Both the position numbers and the translations under genes were made by a program. DNA of 64,000 nt from Octopus sinensis (lineage: Eukaryota), in contig NC_043010.1 of the NCBI RefSeq assembly GCF_006345805.1, forward strand, positions 8,866,001-8,930,000, given 5' to 3'. The notes below the pieces were generated by a model. The model made no database searches. It was not told the DNA's origin and was given only the letters and a program-made list of their open reading frames with translations. Positions 3,609-59,175 of the stretch are shown piece after piece (positions within the stretch are counted from its first letter, which is position 1; each line of letters begins with the position of its first letter).

Positions 3609-3692
3609 CTTTCCTGTTGAGAAGATTACATTATTTTACACTGTTTATTCCTTTGGAATAAAACCAATGTTGTCTTCGAAACATGTCGAAAG
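3609..3692 (+). ncRNA. Type I hammerhead ribozyme-like motif (A6U core, long stem II, GUC site)
   Basis: Stem I CTTTC/GAAAG; core CTGTTGA; stem II GAAGAT/GTCTTC with extensions; GAAA; palindromic stem III ACATGT; cleavage triplet GTC (after 3687). Confidence 0.75.
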
Positions 3693-3744
3693 TAAAAGAA
3701 TAACACTTGCGTTCAACTCCATTTATTTACTTATATATATATTT

Positions 3745-4165
3745 ATCATCATCATCATCATCGTCGTTTAACGTCCGTTCTCCATGCTAGCATGGGTTGG
3801 ACGGTTCGACCGGGGTTCTGGGAAGCCAGAAGGCTGCACCAGGCTCCAGTCTAATCTGGCAATGTTTCTACAGCTGGATGCCCTTCCTAACGCCAACCAC
3901 TCCGTGAGTGTAGTGGGTGCTTTTTACGTGCCACCTGCACAGGTGCCAGGCGGGGCTGGCAACGGCCACGGTCAGATTGGTGTATTTTATGTGCCACCGG
4001 CACGGAAGCCAGTCGAGGCGGTGCTGGCATCGGCCACGAGTCGGATAGTGCTTTTTACGTACCACCAGACCAGGGATCCTGGCTGGTTCAATTCGATTTC
4101 GATTTCGCTTGCCCCAACATGTCTTCACAAGCAAAGGGGGTTGGCATGGGTGCCTGTCGTACGGT
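3745..4165 (-). mobile_element. Family D repeat (RTE-type 3' tail, internal GTGCC..GGCACGTAAAAAGCACC units)
   Basis: (CAT)n-CGTTTAACGTCCG..GGATGCCCTTCCTAACGCCAACCAC on +; same tail as the RTE fragments. Confidence 0.8.
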
Positions 4166-4337
4166 CGCATTGGAGTATTTTACGTGTTAATATATATATA
4201 AATATAAAATACAATGTACATTTAAACACATTAAGAGGTATCCATCATAGGACTCTCTTATGCTAGAAGGAACAGCTAAAGTCCAAACCACTAATTAGGG
4301 ATAAAATCTCGAAGGGAATGAAAAATAAAGAAAACAT

Positions 4338-4406
4338 TTACCATCTATTTCAGACTTTTTTAGCAAATAACATAATTTGCCAGGCGAAGTCTTCATCAAC
4401 AGGTAC
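4338..4406 (-). ncRNA. Degenerate hammerhead-like motif
   Basis: Minus strand: TACCTG-TTGATGA-AGACTT..AAGTCT-GAAA-TAGATGGTA; stem III and cleavage site are damaged. Confidence 0.4.
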
Positions 4407-4562
4407 GCTAAGATTAAACATATAAGTACGAGGCAAATCCAGCATGTACCGCTTGCTTGTACATTTTAATTTTTCAAATCCAATGCACAAGTGCAGTTTT
4501 TTGTTGGCAGCAAAAAAAAATGCCGGTAATTTCTATGAATAATTCTCCAGAAATTATTATAC

Positions 4563-4716
4563 ATAATTAATATCAGCATAATAAGGATTTTAGAAATTTT
4601 TACTACCAGTGGCCTAGTGTATAGAAAAATTAGTCAAGAGATAGCCTATTGATTAATTTTTCTATACACTAGGTAGTTAAAATTTCTAAAATCCTTATTA
4701 CCCTGATATTATTAAT

Positions 4717-4719
<3 letters not shown>
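4563..4719. repeat. Long near-perfect inverted repeat (about 70-bp arms)
   Basis: TAATAAGGATTTTAGAAATTTT..CCTAGTGTATAGAAAAATTAGTCAA pairs with TTGATTAATTTTTCTATACACTAGG..AAAATTTCTAAAATCCTTATTA; 11-nt loop. Confidence 0.9.
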
Positions 4720-4747
<28 letters not shown>

Positions 4748-5131
4748 ATATATGTATATATGTATATATATATGAGTGGCTTCTTTCGGTTTCCATCTAC
4801 CAAATCCACTCTAAAGGTTTTGGGCGGCCTGAGACTGTTGTGGTATTACCATGCAGTGGGACTGAACTCAGTTTCTTATCGCAGAGAGAAGAAAGACAAC
4901 CTTCCAGTCTTTTTGCTAATCACTAAATATCATTTGTTTATTTGATTTCCAATTTGTGTAAATCTTCTTATTATTCTTTGTTACCTGTAGTCATCTCATA
5001 GTACTCATTCGCTCAGTAAATATTTCTTTCATTATTTTATCAGTTTTATGCTCTACCTTTTAATAAACAAACTAAAATGTTTCCTGTTTTCCACAAGGTC
5101 ATTCAGTATGCTAGAAATAGCAGCAATCATG

Positions 5132-5348
5132 TTCTTTTATTCTTTTAGTCATTTATTTGTTTCAGTCATTTGACTGAGGCTATGCTGGGGCACCGCCTTT
5201 AGTCGAGCAAATCGACCCCAGGACTTATTCTTTGTAAGCCTAGTATTTATTCTATTGGTCTCTGTTGCCGAACCGCTAAGTGATGGGGATGTAAATACAC
5301 CAGCATCGGTTGTCAAGCGATGTTGGGGGGATAAACACAGATACACAA

Positions 5349-5387
<39 letters not shown>

Positions 5388-5523
5388 CGACGGGCTTCTT
5401 TCAGTTTCTGTCTACCAAATCCACTCAGAAGGATTTGGTTGGCCCGAGGCTATAGTAGAAGACTGAACCTGGAACCATGTGGTTGGTAAGCAAGCTGCTT
5501 ACCACACAGCCACTCCTGTGCCT
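5132..5523 (-). mobile_element. SINE family B
   Basis: tRNA-like head (AGGC.CAGGAGTGGCTGTGTGGTAAG...GGTTCAGTC), internal (TA)/(TG) tract, tail CAAATGACTGAAACAA. Confidence 0.9.
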
Positions 5524-6714
5524 TGTGGGAATATTCTAAGGAGCATATCATACCAAACAACCATACAAACAAATTGACCCATAATTCATTTTCTCTTTCT
5601 CAAATTATGCCAGTTTAGTGATTTCAAATCATGCCACCTCTGCCTCATATACCTAACCTCCTGGTTACTAGAAATCACATTCAGATTGTCAGAGTGTAGG
5701 ATGAAATCGAATTCAAATTACTCCCAGGGGTAATATGGAACTGACTTCATTTGACCTTCTATGATTTTAGATTATCTCCCCAAATCCTGCCTGAAATGTT
5801 CATTGCCTTGGTGGCAAATAAAATATTTCTTCTGTAAGTGTATACATTAGATACACATGTAAATCACAGAGAAAGTGTATTGGGTGACTGCTTAGTTTAT
5901 TCAAGCTGAAAAAAATCTCATTTAAAAGTGTATGAATATATTTTTTGCATAATAAATGTGTATGAATATATTTTGTTATGTATATGAATATATTTTGTTA
6001 TGTATATAAATATATTTTGTCTATATTTAAAATGTATGTGTATTTATATTTTGTTTTGAATAACATATATTTTGATCGCTGGCAAAAAGAAAGTACTGTG
6101 CTTGTAAACCCTCTTATCCAAATAAGTTTGTTATTAAAAAACAAAAAAAAAAATGTTTTTATGTAAAAATAGCAGACTCAGAATCTCTGATGTTCAAAGT
6201 GTTTCTTTTAAAGGCTTCATAAAAATGTTAGGGGATGTAGTGGAAGGAAACAAAAAAAAAATCATATCATAAAACTTTCTGTTGGTTCTAACGCATGTGA
6301 TTGTATAACATTTCTTTTCTACTGATATTTTATATTTATACAACTTCGATTTAATAACCTATATAAATACGCAACTACAGATGTACAAAGATGAGATATG
6401 ATACTTTTGTTCATTTTTGTTCATCACATGAACTACGATGACGCAAACAGTGGAGGTTTTAGCAAAGGAATTAAGTATTGGAAGTGTAAGGCATAAAAAA
6501 AAGAGGCTTTCTCACAGTGGAAGACTGGCAGGGAATTAAAATTAATTATTTAGTTGAAAAGAATCATGAAAACCACATTTTGCTAAAAATATATTAAAAT
6601 TGGAATTTTAAAAACTTTTCTAGACAATTGTTTTCTATTAGTAAAAGTAACATATTTTCAACTAATCAGCAATCAGCTATATATATATGTATATATATAT
6701 GTGTGTGTACGCCA

Positions 6715-6922
6715 TGTTGATTCGTTAGCTACTGCACGCATTTTTTTTCTCTCCTTCTTTCTGTGTTTTTCTCTCTCTGTGTATCTTTCTGTTGAAGAGC
6801 GTAGGCTCGAAACGTTAAAGACTTGTTTTATTTATATTTCCTGAGCGCCATACTAATACAATTGTTCGTTTGTTTTCCACCTGCCTTCGTCTTTTGTTTA
6901 TTTTCATAAAGCTTCCCGTTAT
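6715..6922 (+). mobile_element. About 210-bp (TA)n-flanked hammerhead-bearing mini-element (putative non-autonomous Penelope-like)
   Basis: Homologous to 23925-24105, 49460-49645 and 59000-59175; flanked by TA-rich microsatellite on both sides. Confidence 0.7.
6784..6821 (+). ncRNA. Minimal type I hammerhead-like motif (A6U core)
   Basis: TCTTT-CTGTTGA-A-GAGC(GTAG)GCTC-GAAA-CG-TT-AAAGA: 5-bp stem I, 4-bp stem II, palindromic ACGT stem III. Confidence 0.7.
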
Positions 6923-6927
6923 ATATG

Positions 6928-6967
<40 letters not shown>

Positions 6968-7177
6968 CATACATACATACATACATACATTACATACATG
7001 CACACACACACACATATATATATACATACATATATATATATATGACAGGCTTCTTTCAGTTTTTGTCAACCAAATCCACTCACAAAGCTTTGGTCCTGCC
7101 AAGGCCATTGTAGAAGACACTTGTCCAGGGTGCCATGCACTGGAACTGAACCCAGTGGTTGGAAAGCTAACTTCTTA

Positions 7178-7560
7178 TTTCTTTATTGCTCACAAGGGGC
7201 TATAAACATAGGAGGGACAAACAAGGACACACAAAGGGATTAAGTAGATTACATTAACTCCAGTGCAAAAGGATGAAAGGCAAAGTCGACATTGGCGGAA
7301 TTTGAACTCAGAACATAACGGCAGACAAAATACCTATTTCTTTACTACCCACAAGGGGCTAAACACAGAGCGGACAAACAAGGACAGACACAGATTAACT
7401 CGATTACATCGACCCCAGTGCATTACTGGTACTTGATTTATCGATCCCGAAAGGAAGAAAGGCAAAGTCGACCTTGGTGGAATTTGAACTCAGAACGTAA
7501 CAGCAGATGAAATACCGCTAAGCATTTCGCCCGGCGTGCTAACGTTTCTGCCAGCCCGCC
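7178..7560 (-). mobile_element. Two tandem family A SINEs nested in a family B SINE (7040-7585)
   Basis: Two ATTTCTTTA..GGCGGAATTTGAACTCAG units; the host resumes at TTCTTACCACACAGCC. Confidence 0.85.
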
Positions 7561-7902
7561 TTCTTACCACACAGCCATGCCTGTGTCTATGCCACCAGAA
7601 CTTTTATTCCTAAAATACACAGCACAAGCTCCAATTCCTTGATCCCTTTAACCATTTTATTACTGTCCCTGTGGCTGCAGTAGTCGTGGTAGTGTGGTAG
7701 AAATAACTAAGGGAAGGATGGACTAAAATAAAAGAATGGTTGAACTAGTATTTAGTTCAGGGCAAATTATTGTTGTTGAAGTTGGTTTTGATGATATTGC
7801 AACTGTTGCTGTAGATAGTAGTCTTAGCTCAGTCTTTAACAAACAAACGTTTTATCATAGCATTCCAGCCATGACCATCTTGTCAATTGCATTTTTTAGG
7901 TA

Positions 7903-8128
7903 TCTCTTTCTCTTTTACTCTTTTATTTGTTTCAGTCATTTGACTGCGGCCATGCTGGAGCACTGGCTTTTTAGTCGAGCAAATCGACCCCGGGACTTAT
8001 TCTTTGTAAGTCCAGTACTTATTCTATCAGTCTCCTTTGCCGAACCGCTAAGTAATGGGGACGTAAACACACCAGCATCGGTTGTCAAGCAATGCTAGGG
8101 GGACAAACACAGACACACAAACACACAC

Positions 8129-8170
<42 letters not shown>

Positions 8171-8333
8171 GACAGGCTTCTTTCAGTTTCTGTCTACCAA
8201 ATCCACTCACAAGGCATTGGTCGGCTCAGGGCTATAGAAGAAGACACTTGACCATGATGCCACGCAGTGGGACTGAACCCGGAACCATGTGGTTGGTTAG
8301 CAAGCTACTTACCACACAGCCACTCCTGCGCCT
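7903..8333 (-). mobile_element. SINE family B, full length
   Basis: Head and tail as in 13600-14025. Confidence 0.9.
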
Positions 8334-8614
8334 ATCTATTTTTTTCTTTTTCATCTAGTTTCAGCTCACGAGCTGTGGCCATGCTGGGGCACTGCCATTT
8401 GGTGTTGCTACATAATTTTACTTCACGAATGCTTTTTAGCAATTGACATTTGGTGCATGAGAGAGTTTGATGCAGCTGCCCTCATCTGCACCTCCTGCTG
8501 TGAAGTTGGTTCATCTGGGACACCTGGCAGGAAGAGGTCCTGCTTTATTTTGAAGACACCTACATCCACCCCGTACAGCTATGTATGTGTCTATTCACAG
8601 TTTTTCTTTAAGGT

Positions 8615-9050
8615 CATCATCATCATCATCATCATCGTTTAACGTCCGCTTTCCATGCTAGCATGGGTTGGACGATTTTGACTGAGGGCTGGCGAACCAG
8701 ATGGCTGCACCAGGCTCCAATCTTGATCTGGCAGAGTTTCTACAGCTGGATGCCCTTCCTAACGCCAACCACTCCGAGAGTGTAGTGGGTGCTTTTTACG
8801 TGCCATCGGCATGAGGGCCAGTCAGGCAGTACTGGCAATGACCTCGCTCGAATCTTTTTACACGTGCCACTGGCACAGGTACCAGTGAAGCGACGTTGGT
8901 AACGATCACGCTCGAATGGTGCCCTTTTACGTGGCACGGTTACGGAAGCCAGTTGGCTGCTCTGGCAACGATCACGCTCGGATGGTGCTCTTGGCACCCT
9001 ACTAGCACAGGCACAAGTGCCAGTAAGGCGATGCTGCTAACGATCATACT
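8615..9050 (-). mobile_element. Family D repeat
   Basis: Near-identical to 63557-63957. Confidence 0.85.
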
Positions 9051-9126
9051 CGTATATTAAGGCAACGCTGGTAACGATCATACTCGTATATTAAGGCAAC
9101 GCTGGTAACGATCATATTCGTATATT

Positions 9127-9360
9127 AAGGTGGCGAGTTGGCAGAAACGTTAGCACGCCGGGCGAAATGCTTAGCGGTATTTCGTCTGTCGTTACGTTGT
9201 GAGTTCAAATTCCGCCGAGGTTGACTTTGCCTTTCATCCTTCCGGGGTCGATAAATTAAGTACCAGTTCCGCACTGGGGTCAATGTAATCGACTTAATAC
9301 CTATGTCTGTCCTTGTTTGTCCCCTCTGTGTTTAGCCCCTTGTGGGTAATAAAGAAATAG
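9127..9360 (+). mobile_element. SINE family A, full length
   Basis: AAGGTGGCGAGTTGGCAGAAACGTTAGC...GAGTTCAAATTCC (B-box-like)...TAAAGAAATAGG. Confidence 0.9.
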
Positions 9361-10489: not shown

Positions 10490-10817
10490 TGATATATATA
10501 TATATTTGTATGTATGTATATATGTATATGTGTGTATGTATGTATGTATGTATGTATGTATGTATATATATATATGCATATATATATATGTAAATATGTG
10601 TATATATATGTGTATGTGTGTATATACATACACACACAGACACACATGTATATATATTTATAGATGTATATGCATACATATATATATACATACACACATA
10701 CGCATATATATATATATATATATATATGTTGTATATACACATCTATCTGTGTATCTGTCTCTCTACATCTCTCCCCCCTTTTCTATATATACATCTATTT
10801 ATATATTATACATTCAT

Positions 10818-14104: not shown

Positions 14105-14860
14105 TAAAATATATTTGCCAACTAAATGTGGCAGTCCCATAGAGGACGAAGTTACTGTTGTTTTTAGCCTCAGGAAGACATACCATCCAGCTGGCTAATG
14201 ACACACTGTGTCCGATTGGTACTTGCAAGGGGAGGTCACCGCTCCCATCTCTGGCTTTACGTGATACACACGCACTCAGGTTTCTGGATAGTTACCTGTC
14301 TTCAGTGTGTGATAATCACCAGCTAGTGACAGAAACTCATTCCACTTGAAAAATACTACGCTTTTTCCAGCAGCAAATTGTCGCTGATCTTAAAAATGGA
14401 GAAATAAGCTATATCAAATCTCTGAGCGAGAGGTAAACAGTAACAGTATGGAATTGTAAAATATATTTGCCGACTAAATGTGGCAGTCCCATAGAGGACG
14501 AAGTTACTGTTGTTTTTAGCCTCAGGAAGACATACCATCCAGCTGGCTAATGACACACTGTGTCCGATTGGTACTTGCAAGGGGAGGTCACCATTCCCAT
14601 CTCTGGCTTTACGTGATACACACGCACTCGGGTTTCTGAGTAGTTACCTGTCTTCAGTGTGTGATAATCACCAGCTAGTGACAGAAACTCATTCCACTTG
14701 AAAAATACTACGCTTTTTCCAGCAGCAAATTGTCGCTGATCTTAAAAATGGAGAAATAAGCTATATCAAATCTCTGAGCGAGAGGTAAACAGTAACAGTA
14801 TGGAATTGTAAAATATATTTGCCAACTAAATGTGGCAGTCCCATAGAGGACGATGTTACT
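14105..14860 (+). repeat. Tandem repeat, 352-bp unit x about 2.15, highly structured
   Basis: ATATTTGCC begins at 14111, 14463 and 14815; 6 substitutions between the two full copies. Confidence 0.95.
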
Positions 14861-18525: not shown

Positions 18526-19000
18526 GTTGGTGTCCTTTCGTCCTGTAGAAGTACCCAAGTGCAATAAGCATCTTCAGCGACTGAAGGTTTCTCTATGATC
18601 ACAGTATTTGATATCGGTTCCATATTTTGGCACAAGGCCAGCCAGCAATCTCGGGGAGGGACTAAGTTGATTACATCGACCCCCAGTGCATAACTGATAC
18701 TTATTTTCTCAACCCTGAAAGGATGAAAGGCAAAGGCGACCCCGGCAGAATTTGAACTCAGGACATGAGGACATTCAAACGGTATTTAATCCTGAACTGT
18801 GATTTGATCCTGGGCCATTTTCATTATTTGCAGAGACCTCATACTGTTGCTGTTATTTATCCCTAGTCAATTCTGCTTCAGTAGATCTAAGATCAAAAAC
18901 ATTCCAGCCATGACCATCCACACTTTTGTTTTCGTTTACTTTTTAAGCAGCTCACTTTGCAACCATGTGACCTTGGGTTCAATCCCATTGCATTGCACCT

Positions 19001-19597
19001 GGTTGTGGCGGTGTTGGTGGTGGGGCTGCTATGATAAGTGGTGATGTATCAGAGACATGTTAAAACATTATGACCACAGCCCCACCAAAAAAAAAAAAAA
19101 AAATTAACGTTTTTTTCGATTAGAGTTGACTTCGGCTAAACACCAATAAGAATACAAAAAAAATATGTTTTAAATAAACGAAACGATTCTCTACTAAAAT
19201 TACGATATCTCTTTACTCTTTTCAAATTAAATTCCTTCTCAAGATTATACGAATACGAACGCACACACGCACATATACGTTTGCGAGTGCATGTGTGTGT
19301 GTGTCTGAGCGCACACACCTGCGTGTGTGTGTGCAATGTCAACAAGTTGTCTCCCTTAGACCATAAATTATTTCTTTATTTTTTACCTAAGTTTGTAAAG
19401 TTTTCACTTTTAATCTTAATTGCAAATCCAGCCTCTTCATGTTCGTTCGACCTGTTAGAAACTGTAGCCAAATTTCACTTTGAACAAAACTTAATTAATA
19501 AATACAATTATTATTTTATTTATGCCCCCTTTTCAAGCCTAGCCAAGCTCATGGACTCGGTTTCCTAGTTTCTATGGCGTATGTGTTCCTCCCCAGC
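19001..19597 (+). repeat. Local duplication, copy 1 (copy 2 at 21501-22480)
   Basis: Shared unique sequence, e.g. GCTGCTATGATAAGTGGTGATGTATCAGAGACAT and AAATTACGATATCTCTTTACTC. Confidence 0.85.
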
Positions 19598-19791
19598 TGG
19601 ACGGGGTGCCAGTCCATCGCAGCGTTAGAAAGAGTGAGAGAAAGTTGGGGCGAAAGAGTACAACAGGGGTTGCCACCATCCTCTGACGGAGCCTCGTGAA
19701 GCTTGTAGGTGTTTTCGCTCAATAAACACACACAACGCCCGACCTGGGAATCGAGTCCGCTGCCCTAACCACTGGGCCATTGCTGCCTCCA
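19515..19791 (-). mobile_element. SINE family C (tRNA-Arg-like head, octopus OR-type) with tail Y
   Basis: Minus strand GGAGGC..AATGGCCCAGTGGTTAGGGCAGCGGACTCG; tail ..CCATGAGC..GGCTTGAAAAGGGG. Confidence 0.8.
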
Positions 19792-19854
19792 GTATAAATA
19801 CATAAATAAGTGATATATTAGACTGCCTTGCATGTTCGAAGTCTAGATTATAAA

Positions 19855-20022
19855 CAAATCGACCTCAGGACTTATTCTTAGTATTGTAAGCGCCTAGCAC
19901 TTATTCTATCGTTTATTTTGCCGAACCGCTAAGTTACGGAGACGTAAACTCCCCACCATCGGTTGTCAAGTGATGTTGGAGGGGGGGTACAAACACAGAC
20001 ACACAAACACACAGACACACAA

Positions 20023-20055
<33 letters not shown>

Positions 20056-20233
20056 CATATATACGACAGGCTTCTTTCAGTTTCCGTCTACCAAATCCAC
20101 TCACAAGGCTTTGGTCAGCCCAAAGCTATAGTAGAAGACGAAGACACTTGCCCAAGGTGCCAAGCAGTGGGACTGAACCCGGAACCATGTGGATCGTAAG
20201 CAAGCTACTTACCACACAGCCACTCCTGAGCCT
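19855..20233 (-). mobile_element. SINE family B
   Basis: Homology to family B. Confidence 0.85.
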
Positions 20234-20544
20234 ATGAGATGCGGCTTAGCGGCATTTCAGCTGTCTTTGTGTTCTGAGTTCAAATTCTGTCAAAGTTGAC
20301 TTTGCCGTTTTATCCTTCTGGGGATAATAAAATAAGTACCAGTTGAGAACTGGGGTTCATGAAATCGACCTTCCCCTTCCCCCAAAATTGCTGGCCTTGT
20401 GCCAAAATTCGAAACTAATATATCCTCATATATCTTTCTATTTAAAATGACAGGGTGCGATTTGAGGGAGAGTTGTCTGCTATTTATAGCAGAGCAAGTG
20501 GCTACATTAAAGATTGCCTTGACTGGTGTTGATACTGTTGCTGT

Positions 20545-20928
20545 TGAGCGTAGCGGTCTTTGTCCCAGAGCTCGCAAGATCGCGCCTCTGTAGTGGGAGA
20601 AGTCCGAAACGTGGTCCTTTGCTATTCATAAGACCCGCAGAAGAGAAAGCAGGTCAACCCCCCGACACCGAGAGCATCGACGGATGGATGAATGCGCATC
20701 CAGGCTCAGCGGTTGCGTAGGAAGTCGGGGACAAGAAGCGGGAAGAAAGAGTGAGAGAAAGTTGGAGAGAAAGAGTACAACAGGGGTCGGCGCCATCCCC
20801 TGCTGGAGCCTTGTGGAGCTTTAGCTGTTTTCGCTCAATAAACACACACAACACCCGGTCTGGGAATCGAAACAGCGATCCTCCGACCGCGAGTCTGCTG
20901 CCCTAACCACTGGGCCATTGCGCCTCCA
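20545..20928 (-). mobile_element. SINE family C head with a distinct GC-rich tail
   Basis: Head as at 27963; 3' part unlike the other family C copies. Confidence 0.7.
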
Positions 20929-21002
20929 CTTGTCGTTGCTGTTGATGATGATGTTCTCGTATTTAGTGTTGTTAGTGGTGGTCGTGGTGGTATTGCTGGT
21001 AG

Positions 21003-21427
21003 GGCGATCTTTCGTCTCTAGTAGACCTCTCCGTCGATTTCCGTAAAATAGTTTTTTTCTTTACATATGGGCTTGCGGGAACTTTTGAAGTAATATACAT
21101 ACATATACACATACACCGAGTAAAAAATTTCAGTTATCTCTTTCTTTCACACATTACTCTGTCTCTTCACACATACTAACAGAAGCACTTCACTTACACA
21201 ACATACTGTCCGTCTCCCACACCCCATCAAACACACACACACACACACATGTATATCAATGCTTCCCCTGGACGGTAACTTCAAAAGAATTTCCCTCGTC
21301 ATACAATCGCTTTCTCTTAGTCTCTTTCGCTCTCATTACTTCAAAAGTTCCCGCAAGCCCATGTGTAAAAAAAAAAAATTTTTTTACGGAAATCGACGGA
21401 AAGGTCTACTAGAGACGAAAGATCGCC
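21003..21427. mobile_element. MITE with about 90-bp TIRs and 8-bp TSD (Merlin-like)
   Basis: TIR GGCGATCTTTCGTCTCTAGTAGACCT../..AGGTCTACTAGAGACGAAAGATCGCC; TSD GCTGGTAG at 20995-21002 and 21428-21435. Confidence 0.9.
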
Positions 21428-21681
21428 GCTGGTAGTGTTATTGACTGTTGTGTTGGGCGGCGGTGGTGTTTGTCATGGCATTATTACTGTTACTGATGCT
21501 GGTTGTGGCGATGTTGGTGGTGCTGGTGATGGGGTTGCTGCTGCTATGATAAGTGGTGATGTATCAGAGACATTTATCAACATTCTGACCACGGCCCCCA
21601 CCAAAAAAAAAATAATAAATAATAATAATAAATTAACGTTTTCTCGATTAGAGTTGACTTCGGCGACACACCAATAAGAAT

Positions 21682-21945
21682 ACAAATGTAAATAAACCCA
21701 ATCTGTTTCTTAAACGAGGGACATATTCATACAGCACGGAATGTTGTTTACCTAAATGGACTCCAGCGATTGGTTAAAATTGCCGAATTGCTCGAAATTT
21801 CAGACGAAATATCTTACAACCTATTGAATTTTCTGAATAAAGCCAAGAGAAAAAGATGTTTTATAAACACATTCTGCCAGTATTGGAAGTTTAAAAGTGT
21901 TTAGGTTAACTAGAAATTATGTTACAAAGTGCCGTTCAAACAAAA
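21682..21945 (-). mobile_element. Fragment of the MITE family at 27272-27686
   Basis: Reverse complement of about 27278-27540. Confidence 0.8.
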
Positions 21946-22479
21946 ATTACGATATCTCTTTACTCTTTCAAAATTAAATTCCTTCTCAAGATTACGCGAA
22001 CATGAACGCACACACGCACACAACGCACACACGCACACAACGCACACACGCACACAACGCACACAACGCACACAACGCACACACGCACACAACGCACACA
22101 CGCACACAACGCACACACGCACACAACGCACACACGCACACAACGCACACACGCACACACGCACATATACGCTTGCGAGTGCACGTGCGTGTGTGTCTGA
22201 GCGCACACACTTACGTGTGTGCAATGACAACAAGTTGTCTCCCTTAGACCATAGATTATTTATTTTTTACCATAAGTTTGTAAAGTTTTCTTTTAATCTT
22301 AATTGCAAATCCAGCCTCTTCATGTTCGTTTGACCTGTTAGAAACTGTAGCCAAATTTCACTTTGAACAAAACTTGATTAATAAATGCATTTATTTTTTT
22401 TATGCGCCCTTTTCAAACCTAGCAAGGCTCATGGACCCGGTTTCCTGGTTTCTATGACGTATGTGTTCCCCCCCTCAGC

Positions 22480-22779
22480 TACATTTTGTATTATGTAGCT
22501 TGTTCTCTTTAAGTGAACTGCAAAAAGGCGACACAGCAGTCAAAAAATCGTAATAAATAGGGATTTTCATAGAAAAAGGCACCTTTTTGATGTAAATAAG
22601 TTTTGGTCTTAACATGGTCCGATTTCAATTTTATCTTCAACGGAACGAAGAGCAAGCCTTCTTCTATCATACTCTCAATTTTGGTCAACTTGTGCCGCAG
22701 GGTCTCGGAGGAGATAGTGTTAGTTGAAGGCTACCAAACCTGCCATACACAGACAACTTCAGCTATATATATATAGAGA
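22480..22779 (-). mobile_element. Helitron-like 5' fragment
   Basis: Minus strand begins A|TCTCTATATATATATAGCTGAAGTTGTCTGTG, a typical Helitron 5' end; 3' end not seen. Confidence 0.55.
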
Positions 22780-22816
22780 TATGTATATATATATATATTT
22801 GTAGATATATATATAT

Positions 22817-23212
22817 ACTCTTTTACTTGTTTCAGTCATTTGATTGCGGCCATGCTGGAGCACCGCCTTTAGTTGAGGAAATCAACCCCAGGACTTATTC
22901 TTTGTAAGCCTAGTACTTACTCTATCGGTCTCTTTTGCAGAACCGTTAAGTTACGGGGACATAAACACACCACCATCGGTTGTCAAGCGATGTTGGGGGA
23001 AAAACACAGACACACAAACACACATACATATATATATATACATATATACGACAGACTTCTTTCAGTTTTCCTCTACCAAATCCACTCACAAGGCTTTGGT
23101 CGGGCCGAGTCTATAGCAGAAGACACTTGCCCAAGATGCCACGCAGTGGGACTGAACCCGGAACCATGTGGTTGGTTAGCAAGCTACTTACCACACAGCC
23201 ACTCCTGCACCT
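22817..23212 (-). mobile_element. SINE family B
   Basis: Homology to family B. Confidence 0.9.
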
Positions 23213-23654
23213 ATATATATATATATATATGTAAAATCCTTTCTGCTAAAGGCACAAGGCCTGATATTTGGCAGGTGGGGACTAGCTGATTAAATTGAGC
23301 TCCGTGTTTCATTGGCATTCAACTTATCGACCCCAGAAGGATGGAAAGGTAAAACTTGACCATGGCGGAATTTGAACTCAGAACACAGTGACGGGCAAAA
23401 TACCTGCTAAGCATTTTCGTCCGGCGCCCTAACAATTTTCTGTCTGCTCCACACCTTTGTGTGTGAGTGTGTGCGTGTGTAATAAGAAGTGAAAGAGATT
23501 AATAAAATCAGACAGGTAAAGCACTCAGTGTTAAACGAATTTGGTTTACTATATCAAACAATCAGACACCAATAAATACCGAAAAAAACAAAAATTAACA
23601 TCTAAGATAATATAAGTAATATCGCTTAGAGGAATTTCAACAAATTCAGAGTAT

Positions 23655-23790
23655 AAGATAATAAGAACAAGAATGGAAAAAAATCACATCTTTAATTGGA
23701 GATTACACTCTACAATGCCAATCATCTGTCATCGATGGTGTAATTACCAATTAGACATGTGGTTTTCTCCATTCTTATTCTTGTTGCTTT
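23655..23790 (+). repeat. Imperfect long hairpin (about 50-bp arms)
   Basis: AATAAGAACAAGAATGGA..CACATCTTTAATTGGAGATTACACT pairs with GGTGTAATTACCAATTAGACATGTGG..TCCATTCTTATTCTTGTT. Confidence 0.8.
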
Positions 23791-23809
23791 ATATATGCGT
23801 GTGTGTGTG

Positions 23810-23853
<44 letters not shown>

Positions 23854-23890
23854 ATATATATACACATATATATATATATATGTATGTATG

Positions 23891-23921
<31 letters not shown>

Positions 23922-24014
23922 CGTAGGGAGAGTTTACGAAAAAACAAAAGACGAAGACAGGTGGTGTACAAAACAAACAGATGTATTAGTATGATGCTCA
24001 GGAATAGAAAAAGT

Positions 24015-24050
24015 CTTTTATGTTTCGAGCCTACGCTCTTCTACAGAAAG
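24015..24050 (-). ncRNA. Minimal hammerhead-like motif (A6U core) in (TA)n-flanked mini-element 23925-24105
   Basis: Minus strand CTTT-CTGTAGA-A-GAGC(GTAG)GCTC-GAAA-CA-TA-AAAG. Confidence 0.65.
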
Positions 24051-24120
24051 GGACACAGAAAAAACAAGGAGAGAAAAAAATGTGTGTAGTGGCTAACAAT
24101 CTATTATATATATATATATA

Positions 24121-24159
<39 letters not shown>

Positions 24160-24162
<3 letters not shown>

Positions 24163-24464
24163 GGGTGTTCCTTCTTGAGCCACGCCTGGCTCATAAGGGC
24201 CGGTTTCCCGGTTTCCCTGGCGTATAGGTTCCCCACCTGGATGGGATGCTGGTCTGTTGTAGGTGAGCTGCAAGAAGCAGGAGGAAAGAGTGAGAGAAGG
24301 TTGTGGCGAAAGAGTCAGCAGAAGTTCGCTGTTACCTTCTGTTGGAGCTGTGTGGAGCTTAGGTGTTTCATTCATAAACACACACATTGCCCGGCCTGAG
24401 GTTCGAACCCAAGATCCCTCGACTCGTGAGTCCACTGCTCTACCCACTAGGCCATGTGCCTCCA
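24160..24464 (-). mobile_element. SINE family C-like with tail Y
   Basis: Head GGAGGCACATGGCCTAGTGGGTAGAGCAGTGGACTC on the minus strand; tail CCGGGAAACCGGCCC. Confidence 0.75.
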
Positions 24465-24485
24465 CACACACACACACACGCATAT

Positions 24486-24828
24486 ACTCTTTACTCTTTT
24501 ACTTGTTTCAGTCATTTGACTGCGGCCATGCTGGAGCACCGCCTTTAGTCGAGCAAATCGATCCAGGGACTTATTCTTTGTAAGCCCAGTACTTACTCTA
24601 TTGGTCTCTTTTGCCGAATCGCTAAGTGACGGAGACGTAAACACACCAGCATCTGTTGTCAAGCAATGCTAGGGGACAAACACAGACACACGAACATACA
24701 CGAACATACACATACATATATATGTTTCTGTCTACCAAATCCACTCATAAGGCATTGGTCGGCCTGAGGCTATAGCAGAACCCGGAACCATGTGGTTGGT
24801 TAGCAAGCTACTTACCACACAGCCACTC
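24486..24828 (-). mobile_element. SINE family B (internally deleted)
   Basis: Homology to family B. Confidence 0.85.
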
Positions 24829-24854
24829 CATATATAATTGCACTAAACCTTTTA

Positions 24855-25220
24855 GTTGAGATGACAAAAGACCAAGATATCTGGTGCCTTCCTGGATTTT
24901 AGAAGACCCTTACTCCATAGCAGAAATGTTAAGGCCACTCCCTTTTGTTGGAAGGATTGGCCTACAAGAGTTCTGTGCTGGTGCCACATAAAAAGCATTT
25001 GTTCTAGTGCCACATAAAAGCACTTGTGCGGTGCCACGTAAATGGGCCCTGCACACTCTGTAAAGGGGTTAGCATTAGGAAGGGCATCCAGCCGGGGAAA
25101 CAAACCATGCCAGACGTGACTGGATTCTGGCGCAACTCTCCAGCATGCTAGCTCTGGTCAAACCACCCAATCCATGCTAGCATGGACAACAGACCTTAAA
25201 TGATGATGATGATGATGATG
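24855..25220 (+). mobile_element. RTE-clade LINE 3' fragment
   Basis: EMTKDQDIW..FLDFRRP-like end, AGGAAGGGCATCCAGC, (TGA)n tail; homologous to 812-1272. Confidence 0.75.
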
Positions 25221-25566
25221 TAGATAGGGTTTTAATCCAAGCTGTGTCCCCTTGAAACACATCTCCTTCAATGCTGTATGTAGATGTTGTATTTGTGTGA
25301 GATATGCAAAAGAGTTGAAAAATACTGGAAAATAGATTTTTTTTGTAGGGTACTTATGTATGAATGCAGGATATTGGAAAAAATGATTTTGACATTATTT
25401 TTTCACCATAAGTATTCGATTCTCCATCTGAATAATTTCTATTAGGAGATGCTGTAGATGTTTCTCCTCCATTTACACTTTTGTGACTCCTCTTAATAAA
25501 TGCAATACACACATAATAATAGGGAATAAATAATACCAAAGATTTTTTTCCAGTTGCCTCATTTGA

Positions 25567-45647: not shown

Positions 45648-45795
45648 ATATGCTCACACACGTATATATGTATGTATACACACACATATACATTATATAA
45701 ACATATATGCATGCATCTAAGGCAGATACATCTATCTTTCTATCTATAATTTATATATATCTATAAAATAATATGTTACAATTACTCAATAGTCA

Positions 45796-45858
45796 AGATA
45801 AAACTCTGAGTTTCAGATGCCGAAGTGGAAATCCACAACTCCATCTCTTCGGTTATCT
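45796..45858 (-). ncRNA. Type I hammerhead-like motif (U4C core)
   Basis: Minus strand AGATAA-CCGAAGA-GATG..(GTGGA/TCCAC)..CATC-T-GAAA-CTCAGAG-TT-TTATCT; 6-bp stem I, 3-bp stem III. Confidence 0.65.
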
Positions 45859-46318
45859 GGCCATCTGAAAAACGCTATGAAAAAACACCGTTATATAAAG
45901 GGAAATTACTGCGTTATAATTCTGCTACTTATATAAATTAAGATTAAAAGTTCATAGTAAACACATAAACATGGTTAGTTATACGCTCACATGTGCACTC
46001 GCGGACCCACGTGCATACTTATACGTCACTATGTAAACATACACATCTTCACTCGCATTATATATATATATAGGCAGAAGAGTGGCTATGTGGTAAGGAC
46101 CTTTCTTCCCAACCACATGGTTCAGAGTTCAGTCCTATGGCATATCACCTTGGGCAAGTCCCTTCTAATGTTGCCTTGGGTTGACCAAAGCCTTGTAAGT
46201 GGATTTGGTGGACAGAAACTAAAAGAGGTTATTTAAGAAAGAAAGGATTATTTGTATTTGCATTTTGCCAAGTATTTCACTTCCAGTCGCTATAATATAA
46301 TATATTAATTTATTTTAA

Positions 46319-46538: not shown

Positions 46539-47275
46539 CATATTTTAAAGTTCCCCTCTCCTAATTACTTTATATTTCTCTCTTTCTCTCGGCCCCTTCA
46601 ACAAACTTTTTAATCATGTAATTCCCATCTTTATGTCTTTAACATTTCTCTCTTTCTCTTCCCCTCTCACTTCCGCTAAGTCTCTCTCTCTCTCTCTCTC
46701 TCTTAACATAACTGCATCCCCTGCTCATCTCTCTTTATCGGCTTTTCTTTAACCTCACCACCAGAACATTACCCTCTGCTAGATATTGTACCCTAAACAT
46801 ATCTCTTTCTCTTTACCTTTCCCTCCCCAACCAACAGGATGTCATTAATGCTACTCTCTCCCTTTTTCTCTCACTGTTTTTTTCTTTCACTCTTTACTTC
46901 TCTCTCCAACTAACCACATGATGCATTTGGTCTTATACCTTTCTCTACTTCGTCTTCACTCCTTTCTTCTCTACTCATACTCCTCACCACTCCCCCTCTC
47001 TTTCTTACACACACTTTTACTCCACTTCTCACTCACTCCTCCTCCACCTCTCTAACTAACTAAAGTATAAAGGAAGAAAGAAAAAGCAGAGAGTGTGCAT
47101 GTGTATATATATATATATATATAATATATATATATTATTTATATATAATATTATTATATATATGTATAAAATTAATCAAACAAGAAAGCACAAAAAAACA
47201 CAACAACGCGAGGACGTGGAACAAATATAGTATTATTGGATGCTCAGGAAAGAAGGAAAGAAGGAAAGAAGGAGG

Positions 47276-47310
47276 GTTTAATGTTTCGAGCGGAGCTCTT
47301 CGTCGGAAAC
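47276..47310 (-). ncRNA. Minimal hammerhead-like motif (U4C core) in (TA)n-adjacent mini-element 47165-47390
   Basis: Minus strand GTTT-CCGACGA-A-GAGC(TCC)GCTC-GAAA-CA-TT-AAAC. Confidence 0.65.
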
Positions 47311-47587
47311 ATAGGAGAAGGAAAGATCCAGAGAGGGAAGACAGAGGAAAAAAAAATCGCCAACGGTACACACGAGGTCACATTTTGAAGTACATACATA
47401 TTTATACACACAGATACACATGTAAAAATCATCACTAATCGGTAGTACAAGAGAAATGAATAAAGTTGAAAAATGCACAAAACATATAAAGATTTATTTT
47501 AATTGTTATATATACATATATATATAGAGATAGAGAGATAGATACACACATATGTACAACACAAACACACATATGCACACACACATG

Positions 47588-49420: not shown

Positions 49421-49461
<41 letters not shown>

Positions 49462-49512
49462 ATCACTACACCATTTTTTATTTATTTTCTCTCCTTATTT
49501 CTTTCTGTGTTC

Positions 49513-49548
49513 CTTTCTGTGGAAGAGCATAGGCTCGAAACATTAAAG
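49513..49548 (+). ncRNA. Minimal hammerhead-like motif (A6U core) in (TA)n-flanked mini-element 49460-49645
   Basis: CTTT-CTGTGGA-A-GAGC(ATAG)GCTC-GAAA-CA-TT-AAAG. Confidence 0.65.
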
Positions 49549-49692
49549 ACTTTTCCACTTCCCCAGCATTAAACTAATACATCTGTTTATTATGTATACC
49601 ACCTGTCTTTGTCTTTTGTTTTTTTTTTGTGAATTCTCCCCCTAAATATATATATATATATATACGTATGTATGTATGCATGTATGTGTGTG

Positions 49693-50183: not shown

Positions 50184-50289
50184 GTGTATAATATATAATA
50201 TGTATATAATATAGATGTATATATTATATATATATATTATATGTAACACATGTCCTTGATGTAACACATGTCCTTGTGGAAGCTGTTGT

Positions 50290-50371
50290 GCGCGGCTGAA
50301 GAAGGCCACAGAAATACATTATGCATTGTTATAAATCTGTCTAATAAGGCCCGAAACATATGTACCACCGC
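50290..50371 (+). ncRNA. Type I hammerhead ribozyme with canonical core in (TA)n-flanked element 50243-50487
   Basis: GCGCGG-CTGAAGA-AGGCC..(ACAGA/TCTGT)..GGCCC-GAAA-CATATG-TA-CCACCGC; palindromic stem III ACATATGT; GUA site after 50364. Confidence 0.75.
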
Positions 50372-50529
50372 TGAATCCTTCGCATCATGTTTTTATTTTA
50401 TTTGAATCAATTTACTCCACCACCTACACACCACCAAACGGTATACACAGTGGCTATAATTATCAAGTACTCAACCCGAATTCTATTATATATATATATA
50501 TATATAATATATACATACACACATATACA

Positions 50530-53037: not shown

Positions 53038-53079
<42 letters not shown>

Positions 53080-54245: not shown

Positions 54246-54298
<53 letters not shown>

Positions 54299-54526
54299 TA
54301 TATATATATAAAAGATGGAGGTTGAAATAACACAGAAGTAAGTCTAAGACATTTCAGTTTAAGAGGAAATTGAATAAATATGATTTAAAAAATTATATAA
54401 AGAATATATAATTTATATATATCCTTTATATATAATTTATATATATCTTTTATATATAATTTATATATCTTTCATACATAAAAATTTGATTTGTAAAGTT
54501 CTCTAATCTTCTTTTGAGCATGATGG

Positions 54527-54874
54527 CTACCACTGTCGCCTACTGGCACTTGTGCCGGTGGCACGTGAAAAACAATATTCAAGCGAGATCGTAGCCAGTG
54601 CTGCTGGACTGACTCCTGTGCAGGTGGCACATAAAAAAACACCATTTGAACGTGGCCGTTGCCAGTACCACCTGACTGGCCCTAGTGCCAGTGGCATGTA
54701 AGAGCACCCACTACACACTTGGAGTGGTTGGCGTTAAGAAGGGCATCAAGCTGTAGAAACTCTGCCAAATCAGATTGGAGCCTGGTGCAGCCATCTGGAA
54801 TGCCAGTCCTCTGTCAAATCATCCAACTCATGCCAGCATGGAAAGCAGACATTAAACGATGATGATGATGATGA
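54527..54874 (+). mobile_element. Family D repeat
   Basis: GTGCCGGTGGCACG units plus RTE-type tail. Confidence 0.85.
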
Positions 54875-55481
54875 TATATACATATATATATATTTACATG
54901 TTCCAGCTATTTGACTGTGGATGTTGGAGCATCCCCTCGAAGGGTTTTAGTTTGATGAATCAACCCCAGTATTTATGGATTTTTAAGTCCAGTGATTATT
55001 CTATATATCAACATACATACACCCACTCCCACATGCGCATGCACACACACACACACACACACCACACACACATACACACATACACTCACATGCATATACA
55101 CATATGGATGTCAATATTGATACTAACCTATAAAGCAGCAAGGTGGCAGAATTGTTAGCATGCCAGGCAAGTGGCTTGGCATTCCATCCAGTCCTATGTT
55201 CAAATGAAACCAATGTCAACTTTGCCTTTTCATCCTTTTGGGGGTCAGCAAAATAAGTACCGGTGGAGCACTGAGATCAATGTAATCCACTTAGCCCCTC
55301 CCCTGAACTTGAAGCCATTATTATCATGTTGTTTGTGCAAGCTAATTTAGTTCACAGGTATTCTATCTTGAGGTTTAGCAACAACAAGTCTCCTCAAATC
55401 ATAAGAATCTTTCTTAAAATTCTTGCAACATATAGGACAATACATTTCTGCAGGTTGACAATATAAATTTTATTATTATTA

Positions 55482-55536
<55 letters not shown>

Positions 55537-56824
55537 GAGTGAGGGAGTAGTGCATGCCATCAAAGAGACATTGGGGTACAAATATACAAATCCTGATATA
55601 CCCATCATGACTACCCGTCTGAGAAGGGTAAACCAGATACATGCATCACAATCGTATATGCTTAACATGGTGATCTCATATTAAGATAAACAGTTAGAAT
55701 TTTCTTCAGGTCGAGTAGCCCATCCCACTCAAAAGGTCCCTGAATAAGGTTTGTTTAAGGATGCTGAATGAAACACTTGTTTCCATCATCAGCCACTAAG
55801 GGACATGCTCAACTAGTTAAGGTCAAGCAACTGACAAGCAAATCTGTGATATTGAGCAAAATATTTCCTGTAGCCCATCTTTTATATTAAGACAAAACAT
55901 GTACATGATAACACTTCTAATCAGTTAAGATCAAATGCCTTGTTGTTGTTGTTGTTTCTGCTGCTGTTGCAGCAGTTATTGTTGTTGTTGCTGTTGTTGT
56001 TGTTATTTAGTTCTCATCAGCCCTGTTCAATCAGTTCTAGGATCAAAACATTTAAACCGTGACTAATCACATGTTTTTGTATCTGTCAGATTAGAATATC
56101 TCATGTGTCCTTCCATTCTTTAGAGAATAGGTTGTGATTAGAGCAAACTTTGTTTGTTATTTCTAGCAAAGTGTATGACTGGAGACAAAGAATTACCACA
56201 TGTTACATCAGGCTCATAATACTAAACTTAAATTGTGCTGCATGTCAGTAGATGATAGCGAAAGGAAAAACACTGCCTGTCTCTACGTTCAAAATAAAGC
56301 CTGATCTTCAATGAAGCTACGACTGCCCGCTATTTACTGTTATAATGACCAGGTTTCTTTCATGTAAAATCCTTTGATAACATATTTAAACCCCAGTGAT
56401 CCTTTTTAATGACCATTTGGAGATGTTAAGTCTGGTAAACATGACCAAACAACATCCTGGTTCTCATTAGTCCAGTATATCTAGATTCAATGTCCTGCCA
56501 TCGTATGTGTGCGCACATCCACTCGGTTACATAGATGTAGAGTAATATCGAATGGTAGATGCACAAACAGAGACAGAAACACACGCATGTGCATGCACAC
56601 ACACATGCACATATACACGCGCACACAGAGTATACGTGCGTGCACATGTGTTTTTGTGTATTAAGTATATCTCCATACATGCACAAAAATAAATGTGTTG
56701 ACATACATACATATACACATATACATACATATATATACACACACACATATATTTATATATGTATGTATGTGTGCATGCATTTATATAGATATATATATAC
56801 ACACACACACACACATACACACAC

Positions 56825-56873
<49 letters not shown>

Positions 56874-56980
56874 CATATATACATATACATATATATACAT
56901 ACATATATATATATATATAGATATATATATATATAGATATATATATATATATACACACACATATGTATATACATATATAC

Positions 56981-57060
<80 letters not shown>

Positions 57061-57679
57061 ACATATACATACATACACATTCACACACACACACATTAAC
57101 ATATATATATATAAAATGTTCTTTTATTCTTTTATTAGATTGGGTCATTTATCCCTTACTGTGGTTCAAGTTTGTTATACATGCTGTCAGTGAGAAATTT
57201 TAAATAGTAACCACATGGTCATAAGCTCAAATCTTGCCTCACTTAGAGTAACTAAAAAAAACAAAATCCTGCCTGTTTCACTTTGTATGGCCAGAAACAA
57301 ATCAATTTTGATTTCCAGTCTTTGGACTGGTCTCTGTATTGCATGAGAATATCATTGAAATATATCATAATTTCCCTGTTTTGCATCATTTTAGCAACAT
57401 TATTCAACCTGGTGTTATAATTTTCAACAGAAAGTTTCTGGCTCTGTATGTATTTTTGAATTTTTATCTAACTTATTTTTGAATTTCAATAAAGTTCAAT
57501 ATTGCAAAGCCTTCTGTTCCATTGCCTATCCAGAGGTGAGTTTCATGAATTTGGGTAGTATAGTTCACCAGAAAAAACAGACAGAGCAGTTTATATCATC
57601 CTTGCTTTTCTCATAGATATCATCAATGCTATGGAAGTAGGAGATTTGCAGATAAGGGCGATTGTTAAAAAATAAAATA

Positions 57680-57898
57680 AATGCACCCTTTTAAAGCCTA
57701 GCAATGCTCATGGGCCCGGTTTCCCGGTTTCAATGGCGTATGTGCTCCCCAGCTGGATGGGATGCCAGTCCATCACAGCGTTACTCATTTTTGCCAGCTG
57801 AGTGGACTGGAGCAACGTGAAATGAAGTGTTTTGCTCAAGAAACACGCGTTGCCCGGTCCAGGAATCGAAACCACAATCTTACGATCATGATGCTGAG
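57680..57898 (-). mobile_element. SINE with the 42392-type head/CORE-like block and tail Y
   Basis: Minus strand TTGAGCAAAACACTTCATTTCACGTTGCTCCAGTCCACTCAGCTGGC then CCGGGAAACCGGGCCCATGAGC. Confidence 0.75.
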
Positions 57899-58542
57899 AA
57901 TCTATGAGAGTGTCTTTCTTGGTGCAGAAACCCAGGTCATTATTAGAGCAAACAAAAACAAACATTGATTTCCATTATAAAGAAATTGTTGGTTGCTGAA
58001 CCAACAAAGACATCTGTACGTGGTTATTTTTAACCTGATCGAAATGCAAGCTGGAATACACAAAACACAAAAAGAAAAATTTGGATTGCTTGATGAAGTT
58101 AGCAAAAACTGAGAGAAATCTTAAGTGCATATTTTATTTTATAGTTTTTCACTTGTTTGTTTCTATCATTGAACTGCGGTCATGCTGGAACACTGCCAAG
58201 AAAGGTTTCATCAAATGAATTGACTCCGGTACTCATCTTTTAAAGTCTGATTCTTAGTCTATGGTCTCTTTTACTGAGCCACTTACTGGGATGTAAAGGA
58301 ACCAACACTAGTTGCCAAGCGGTGTAGTGGGGAAAAAAACAACACAACACAAACACAATGTCATACACACATACGTTATATATAGATCAGTTACAGCATT
58401 CATTAAAATCAAAGTATATCACCATGTATGACACCGGGAATGGCTGAGTACTTAGCATCAAGCTCACAGTTAAAGCAACTCTTCGTTGTCATTTGTTGGT
58501 AGTATACTGTGAGTATATTGTGTATATATATGTATATATGGT

Positions 58543-58575
<33 letters not shown>

Positions 58576-58802
58576 TACATTGCTTATAAACTCTATATTT
58601 GGAAGGACTCATTTTAAACTCTGTTGGACTTTTGGACTTTACTCATAGGATACTGGAATATTGCATATATACCACTATGCCTATAAAATGGATTTTCAAC
58701 TTTTATACCCATACATATCTTGCATCTTTTTTCTTCCCTCCACCTCACTCTCTATTTTGTATCACATCTAAACTAACTATGACTTAACTATCCTCTCACA
58801 TC

Positions 58803-58854
58803 GTCTCCGATGAAGGGATATTATTAATAAATATCCTAGAAACAGCTGTAAGAC
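58803..58854 (+). ncRNA. Type I hammerhead-like motif (U4C core) in (TA)n-flanked element about 58575-58925
   Basis: GTCT-CCGATGA-A-GGGATATT(ATTAATA)AATATCCT-A-GAAA-CAGCTG-TA-AGAC; palindromic stem III ACAGCTGT; GUA site after 58850. Confidence 0.7.
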
Positions 58855-58934
58855 CTTCTATCTATAAATGCTCTAATATCTATACCTCCTTGGTTTTTTA
58901 TCTTATTACGCAAAAAATTCTTATACATACATAT

Positions 58935-58980
<46 letters not shown>

Positions 58981-58999
58981 TACATACTATATATATGGT

Positions 59000-59175
59000 T
59001 CAAATGTAGAGAAACAAAAGACAAAAACAGATGAGGAAACAACAAGTAGGTGTTTTAGTTTGATGCTCAGGAAGAATGCAAATGTCTCTGACATTTTGAT
59101 CCTACACTCCTTGATAGAAAGGGACGAAAGGAAAAATAGAGAGAGAAAAAATGTGTTGAGATTACATGCACATCT
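59000..59175 (-). mobile_element. Decayed copy of the 6715-6922 mini-element (eroded hammerhead at 59086-59121)
   Basis: Minus strand CTTT-CTATCAA-G-GAGTGTAGGATC-AAAA-TG-TC-AGAG; shares GATGCTCAGGAA on + with 23993-24004. Confidence 0.6.

Follow-up and report, generated by a model that had tools for sequence, protein, structure and literature searches.

Hammerhead motifs in the window

The stretch of Octopus sinensis DNA analyzed here (assembly GCF_006345805.1, contig NC_043010.1, positions 8,866,001 to 8,930,000; below, the window, 64 kb long and numbered from its first letter) is rich in microsatellites, and 67% of it was matched by other sampled loci of the 2.7-Gb genome. An earlier note on this DNA had listed ten hammerhead ribozyme (HHR) motifs in small islands of the window, and its coordinates and strands were right at all ten. 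The islands appear to be 3' ends, or pseudo-long terminal repeats (pLTRs), of Neptune- and Hydra-type Penelope-like elements (PLEs) together with one non-coding passenger, each carrying a minimal HHR motif; the elements' own endonuclease and reverse transcriptase likely inserted them into (TA)n tracts. Judging from the sequence comparisons described below, we put the probability of this reading at about 0.85.

The ten sites belong to seven families, named A to G. Family A accounts for four of them (6784, 24015, 49513 and 59086): a solo pLTR of a Neptune-type PLE at 6708-6919 on the plus strand, in which the HHR (6784-6821) is complete and has the family core CUGUUGA; two short pLTR copies of a diverged subfamily at 23924-24104 (minus strand) and 49460-49645 (plus strand, approximate boundaries), both with U at core position 6 (U6) and a decayed palindrome; and an old, decayed short copy at 58995-59185 (minus strand, approximate boundaries), the core of which is destroyed. 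Its sister family G is represented by a short copy at 47170-47389 (minus strand), with an A6 core and likewise a decayed palindrome. Hydra-type, 5'-truncated ends are found for family B at 3185-3735 (plus strand), comprising the last 48 codons of a GIY-YIG endonuclease with two in-frame stops, the 3' untranslated region/pLTR and an HHR at 3609-3692 with an A6U change private to this copy; for family D at 58576-58925 (plus strand), with a complete HHR at 58803-58854; and for family E at 45748-46059 (minus strand), with a complete HHR at 45796-45858 that has a CCGAAGA core and a 9-nt near-palindrome. The 3' end of a young Hydra-type PLE of family C lies at 50256-50486 (plus strand), and its HHR, which begins at 50290, has stem I interrupted by a 3-nt insertion. 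Family F at 4190-4719 (minus strand) consists of one 471-bp unit of a tandem, retrozyme-like element without an open reading frame (ORF), plus an inverted 5' piece; a deletion has removed stem III and the cleavage site from its HHR (4338). The family D end and the old family A end share a single (TA)n tract, tail to tail (58576-59185). The families are thus seven, in keeping with the "at least six" of the earlier note. Contrary to what it had supposed, they are not all unrelated, A and G being sisters and the proteins of B to E aligning at 26-42% identity, and its description of the islands as non-coding fails at 3609, where the endonuclease codons lie.

Homology to the HHR was evident at all ten sites, whereas a structural descriptor was passed at only four, the rest having decayed. 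A strict CUGANGA descriptor found no site in the window, and a first relaxed descriptor found two, compared with 0.1 per shuffle in 60 local dinucleotide shuffles. The tuned descriptor, which was built after the family alignments had been viewed, accepts U4C, any base at positions 6 and 7, up to two unpaired bases next to stem II, a long loop 2 and a stem III that is palindromic. The sites with cores at 3614+, 6789+, 45852- and 58807+ passed it, while in 30 local shuffles the hits averaged 0.03 and never exceeded 1, so that in the shuffle check proposed by the earlier note the motif density of the window was far above that of shuffled sequence. Six motifs (24015-, 47276-, 49513+, 50290+, 59086- and 4338-) are damaged relative to their own family, the ACGT palindrome being gone at the first three. 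A palindromic stem III, which had been claimed for most sites, was recovered as a palindrome of 4 to 9 nt in seven of seven families and is lost in five of the ten window copies. The core CUGANGA ... GAAA ... UH with stems I and II is present in the family alignments of B, C, D, E and G, with a U4C change in D, E and part of G. Covariation in the alignment of A and G was weak (score 0.152, reached by 13 of 500 shuffles), with one clear compensatory pair; across families, stem I, stem II and the palindrome differ yet pair around the common core, in hits that had been selected for pairing. Minimum-energy folding of monomers and homodimers gave a mixed picture and was not used as evidence: stems I and II formed in A, B and E, the intermolecular palindrome only in C and D. 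No hammerhead family was present among the 150 of 286 Rfam matches listed for the window, which were microsatellite-driven and nearly all to miRNA families.

Genome-wide abundance and association with (TA)n

Abundance was estimated from a random sample of the large contigs only, made up of sixty 10-kb stretches at round coordinates (599.7 kb in all). The tuned descriptor gave 12 hits in this sample, whereas five shuffles gave 1, 0, 0, 0 and 0 and the reversed sequence 2; the 12 hits extrapolate to ~54,000 complete motifs genome-wide (Poisson range 28,000-95,000) or ~20 per Mb. Homology to the seven families gave 24 matches in the same sample, corresponding to roughly 100,000 in the genome. The density in the window (10 per 64 kb) is ~4 times that in the random sample (24 per 600 kb), but we do not claim a hotspot, because the search library came from the window's own families. 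Genome searches with B to G and with an upstream piece of A each returned 1,300-2,900 first-look candidates, which are not copy numbers. The claimed bounding of the islands by (TA)n held up well: (TA)4 lies within 260 nt downstream of the motif at 9 of 10 window sites and in 19 of 24 random-sample copies, compared with 548 of 2820 background positions. When applied to 1.79 Mb of sampled loci, the descriptor also found more than 12 further HHR types with stems and palindromes unlike those of the seven window families.

Coding elements upstream of the motifs

The link to PLEs that the earlier note had drawn was borne out, as families A to E continue upstream into PLE ORFs. In family A, a pyrimidine-rich 3' region is followed upstream by a CCHH-type endonuclease, and in the full-length element at locus L244 a 1009-codon frame lies between two pLTRs and contains RVT_1 (E 1.3e-7), a Cx4CxxC linker and a GIY-YIG match (E 0.008) short of the Pfam cut-off. 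The copy at 6784 is 99.5% identical to the L244 pLTR. Because of this frame, RVT_1 and the linker, together with DKG, YIDD and the CCHH in the endonuclease, family A is assigned to the Neptune type, whose linker is Cx2-5CxxC, from a motif layout like that of the Neptune rows in Fig. S2 (PMC8557442) and not from a tree. Family G (47276) has its HHR and downstream layout in common with A. Some family A copies (L005/L007 and L191/L195) are tandemly duplicated along with flanking (TA)n, with a period of ~420-450 bp.

In each of the four families B (3609), C (50290), D (58803) and E (45796), a GIY-YIG frame lies upstream of the motif; it has CxxC and CxH motifs around the conserved E and N, and no internal CCHH. 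For B, C and D, reverse transcriptase and endonuclease frames are joined to the same or sister 3' ends. For E, locus L153, a sister subfamily with 87-88% identity to the window copy, holds a complete element in the order (TA)n, 270-bp pLTR, 717-codon frame, second pLTR and (TA)n; its pLTRs are 98.9% identical to each other, both contain the HHR, and the frame carries RWK, DKT, CxCx5C and CxxC-E-N-CxH. Both RWK and DKT are therefore present in E, and DKT also in L180, a sister of B; the N-termini of C and D were not recovered. A Pfam scan of the Hydra-type ORFs gave no family above the cut-off, and the family E protein has 979 unnamed homologues. On these motifs B, C, D and E are of the Hydra type, the comparison with the Octopus bimaculoides element Hydra-1_Obim having been made by eye and without a reverse transcriptase tree.

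Several features of the Hydra-type loci are recorded here in their own right. The ORFs of B and D (L180, L181, L183 and L184) have long Asn-rich inserts before the endonuclease, as described for rotifer Penelope elements. In family C the non-coding 3' region exceeds 1.5 kb (L060 1-1500 and other C loci) and may hold, ~500 nt upstream of the main core, another hammerhead-like one whose parts come in a different order. In three near-identical loci (L059, L061 and L062), one and the same insertion of family C, inverted 5' piece included, is found beside a RING-like Cys/His frame, a likeness that possibly reflects segmental or assembly duplication. Beside a family E element, L156 1-1775 consists of ~477-bp units arrayed in tandem and in inverted orientation, and every unit has an HHR-like core.

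Since A to E run upstream into PLE ORFs, eight of the ten sites represent ends of coding PLEs, either 5'-truncated or solo. The G site is probably the end of a coding PLE as well, and the remaining one, F, is non-autonomous.

Retrozyme-like elements

The proposal that the islands are non-autonomous mini-elements or retrozymes holds for one family of seven, F, and may apply to the short A and G forms too. Families A to E fall outside the non-coding definition of retrozymes because all of them join PLE ORFs. At 6 or more of 20 loci the 471-bp unit of family F forms partial tandems of the same orientation, and inverted pieces often accompany it; its longest ATG frame spans 46-93 codons (three loci), its copies are 83-87% identical among themselves, and it has a U3 core. 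These features fit a non-LTR retrozyme, and an old one. In the window copy, positions 4641-4719 are an inverted copy of the first 85 nt of the F unit, giving a long hairpin at the 5' end of the insertion.

A 352-bp tandem repeat of 2.1 units at 14105-14860 (minus strand) carries one decayed HHR-like motif per unit, with cores at 14305 and 14657, both missing from the earlier note. L065 and L203 contain an intact HHR type to which the motif shows 70.5% similarity, and the repeat is probably another retrozyme family. Like the metazoan non-LTR retrozymes (PMC7229834; bioRxiv 10.64898/2026.07.22.740005), F and the 352-bp repeat are ORF-less tandem units with one type I HHR each, a comparison that does not apply to A-E.

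Element ends and a proposed mode of insertion

Besides family membership, the full-length pLTR-ORF-pLTR organization of A and E and the (TA)n at the 3' end, we observed that the 3' ends of the copies fall at an internal TATA. In all five testable families (A, B, D, E and F, in which longer copies show the continuation), the main 3' end comes directly after the element's own TATA/ATAT, which occurs at only 0.8-4.6% of element positions. This end is 40-120 nt past the cleavage site in A, B, D and E, and B, D and E have a second, longer 3' end too. On the 5' side, the ends are graded or vary widely in B, D and E, truncation being graded into the ORFs in B-E, and inverted 5' pieces are common among copies. 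Part of family A has a hotspot instead: among the first 30 family A matches on contig 1, the start lay within 17 nt of it in 8 of 9 GCT-type copies vs 1 of 21 GTT-type copies, and of the first 30 copies of the GCT subfamily on the same contig, 9 of which overlap with the former sample, 20 start at most 5 nt and 22 at most 18 nt from one point. The 5' starts of G copies cluster likewise, in a similarity-ranked set. One fixed 5' end for all of family A (TA/CGCC) was an artefact of query ranking, shared by 19 of 2,069 pattern matches, and was dropped because the unbiased positional samples show a subfamily-dependent hotspot.

These ends suggest a scheme in which the GIY-YIG domain would nick (TA)n, and the nicked strand would pair with UAUA 40-120 nt downstream of the HHR and prime reverse transcription inside the RNA. 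In the Hydra families copying would stop early, leaving random 5' truncations, while in G and in part of A it would run off the RNA 5' end at a promoter inside the pLTR, leaving solo units of ~215 bp; family F may borrow the same enzymes. Run-off at the transcription start is slightly favored over self-propagating short masters or microhomology joining, because the Penelope promoter lies inside the pLTR (PMC2377424) and rotifer pLTRs show an initiator-like motif (PMC3846280). The HHR itself would be inherited cargo, able to cut only as a dimer or with protein help, and the dispersed, decaying copies are likely inert. In lizard Poseidon, the HHR is reported to be protein-assisted and dispensable for insertion (PMC11167929).

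Alternative explanations

A number of observations weigh against this interpretation or parts of it. The 5' pile-up in family A is subfamily-dependent, which also fits short copies acting as their own masters, and the AT at the hotspot constitutes microhomology to (TA)n that could itself favor joining. The long-ORF loci of A have a 5' pLTR in 7 of 14 cases, with variable start points (570-1230 bp long) off the hotspot, as expected of partial tandems. Family G showed no ORF within 1.5 kb upstream of the 4 longest of 30 copies. The linker of the Hydra-type proteins is CxCx5C in D and E, CxCx3C in C and absent from B. Finally, lizard Poseidon, the sole PLE studied in vitro according to its report, initiates internally at two sites without homology to the cut DNA (PMC11167929). 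If most islands were self-propagating non-autonomous mini-elements, that is, SINE-like (short interspersed element-like) solo pLTRs or retrozymes with their own masters and mobilized in trans, then the ORF-less tandems of F, the mostly short copies with a common 5' end in the GCT subfamily of A and the similar copies of G would be readily explained; a solo copy includes the putative promoter, its target supplies it with a (UA)n tail, and there are published precedents (PMC7229834; bioRxiv 10.64898/2026.07.22.740005). However, the truncation in B-E extends by degrees into the ORFs, and the short copies of A match, at 96-99.5% identity, pLTRs from different long subfamilies that bear ORFs, which argues that short A forms arise repeatedly and not from one master. 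We therefore consider mini-elements an unlikely account of most islands. That the motifs are chance matches in AT-rich repetitive DNA could be argued from the empty strict scan, the Rfam matches listed and the weak A/G covariation, but this explanation is already refuted by the excess over shuffles in the window (4 vs 0.03) and in the random sample (12 vs 0-1, and 2 in reversed sequence), and by stems and palindromes that differ per family around the same core; the motif also sits at the published place in PLE pLTRs.

The earlier note had also suggested that self-cleaving motifs might affect host pre-mRNA. Given 13,318 exact motifs in family A and 9,290 in family G that share an ACGU palindrome, and ~20 complete motifs per Mb, two copies within one long transcript could in principle pair, and cleavage of host pre-mRNAs at scale could then alter gene expression. 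Yet six of the ten window motifs are damaged, the window holds no intact same-family pair, and no host exon or gene was shown in it. Pfam scans of six unique-sequence window frames gave no match above the cut-off, and the contigs of four presumed-RNA runs on 18700-25560, which had no usable splice joints and did not cover two candidate exons, were uninformative on host gene or expression. Published single minimal HHRs showed no cleavage and dimers little (PMC4209133; also PMC6765202), and no lizard PLE reads were reported to end at the cleavage site (PMC11167929). Insertions beginning at the cleavage site are likewise a small minority. By hand count, ~17 of ~56 family A loci (from the first 100 of 228 rows) and ~9 of ~31 G loci have compatible junctions; the A class pools three positions and has TA microhomology, and the neighboring two-position classes number 7 and 5, so that there is no clear excess over neighbors. 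Xenopus retrozymes are reported to be under-represented in introns (bioRxiv 10.64898/2026.07.22.740005). An effect of dispersed HHRs on host pre-mRNA at scale is thus unsupported and, in our judgment, highly improbable.

Core position 6 in families A and G

The family A pattern with U6 and any base at position 7 had 13,318 exact matches in the genome, compared with 484 with another base at position 6, and all four bases were common at position 7 among the 100 matches listed. In family G the corresponding counts were 9,290 with A6 and 85 without. U6 is also present in young, full-length A elements. A free position 7 with the rest of the core fixed is the pattern that would be expected under selection on the HHR fold, although recent common descent would also fit. 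A higher conservation of the HHR (91%) than of its flanks (61%) between A subfamilies was not used, the comparison being circular because the copies had been chosen by the HHR pattern. The A6C variant of phage Bcep176 cuts poorly in Mg2+ and better in Mn2+ (PMC3088659, PMC7151607); like U6 in family A, it is naturally occurring and affects core position 6 while the rest of the core is retained, but the base is C instead of U, and U6 is fixed in a 13,000-copy animal family. Our literature search, outside of which lay the list of PLE HHR variants of Lunse et al. 2017, found no report of a U6 HHR. It is possible, though doubtful, that all of these features belong together: a working U6 HHR would be kept in at least four subfamilies with only position 7 varying, and the pLTR promoter together with the internal UAUA would give rise to self-propagating 215-bp ribozyme SINEs by reverse transcriptase run-off.

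Comparison with published systems and implications

Minimal type I HHRs in PLE pLTRs have been described as thousands of single copies per genome and attributed to truncated PLEs (Cervera & de la Pena 2014, PMC4209133). Those reported there and those in the window are alike in their short stem I, bulge after A9, palindromic stem III, pLTR position and mostly single copies, whereas the numbers differ, 2,000-9,000 being reported vs ~50,000 complete motifs by extrapolation here; the fixed U6 of family A and the extra or changed nucleotides next to G12 in D, E and F are further differences. In coral, more than 6,000 HHRs in 16 families were found (PMC7229834). The Hydra-clade PLEs (Craig et al. 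2021, PMC8557442) include Hydra-1_Obim, with a preference for (TA)n and the same HHR design, and its protein and HHR layout is similar to that of family E when compared by eye. This clade shares with the families described here RWK, DKT, CxCx5C, CxxC/CxH around E and N, (TA)n insertion and the HHR, but the present set comprises four distinct families and differs in the CxCx3C of C, the missing linker of B, the non-coding 3' region of C (>1.5 kb) and the full pLTR-ORF-pLTR copies of E. Likewise, Neptune-clade PLEs (PMC8557442) and family A have in common DKG, YIDD, Cx4CxxC, a CCHH-type GIY-YIG, partial-tandem pLTRs and microsatellite targeting, while the U6 core and the 5' hotspot that yields ~215-bp solo pLTRs set family A apart. 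A repeat annotation of octopus lists 31 recently active PLE families, and its main text makes no mention of ribozymes (PMC13282606).

In summary, the observation made in the earlier note was partly confirmed and its interpretation partly supported, with the connection to PLEs and (TA)n standing, the retrozyme part mostly not and the pre-mRNA part not at all. The literature already contained minimal HHRs at the ends of PLEs, the targeting of (TA)n and a Hydra element from octopus bearing this HHR, and the census itself is a dense example of that published phenomenon, the value of which lies in its use as a test bed. The parts worth experiment are the U6 family and the rules followed by the element ends. 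The TATA-matched 3' ends and the 5' hotspot lead to concrete predictions for the priming of (TA)n-targeting PLEs and for the origin of solo pLTRs and, if true, would point to homology-primed internal initiation as a general rule for microsatellite-targeting PLEs, unlike the non-homologous initiation of lizard Poseidon. Moreover, families A and G together provide ~22,600 exact motifs that differ at one letter of the catalytic core, with young full-length elements in the U6 family, and this U6/A6 sister pair therefore allows a direct test of whether PLE hammerheads have to cut.

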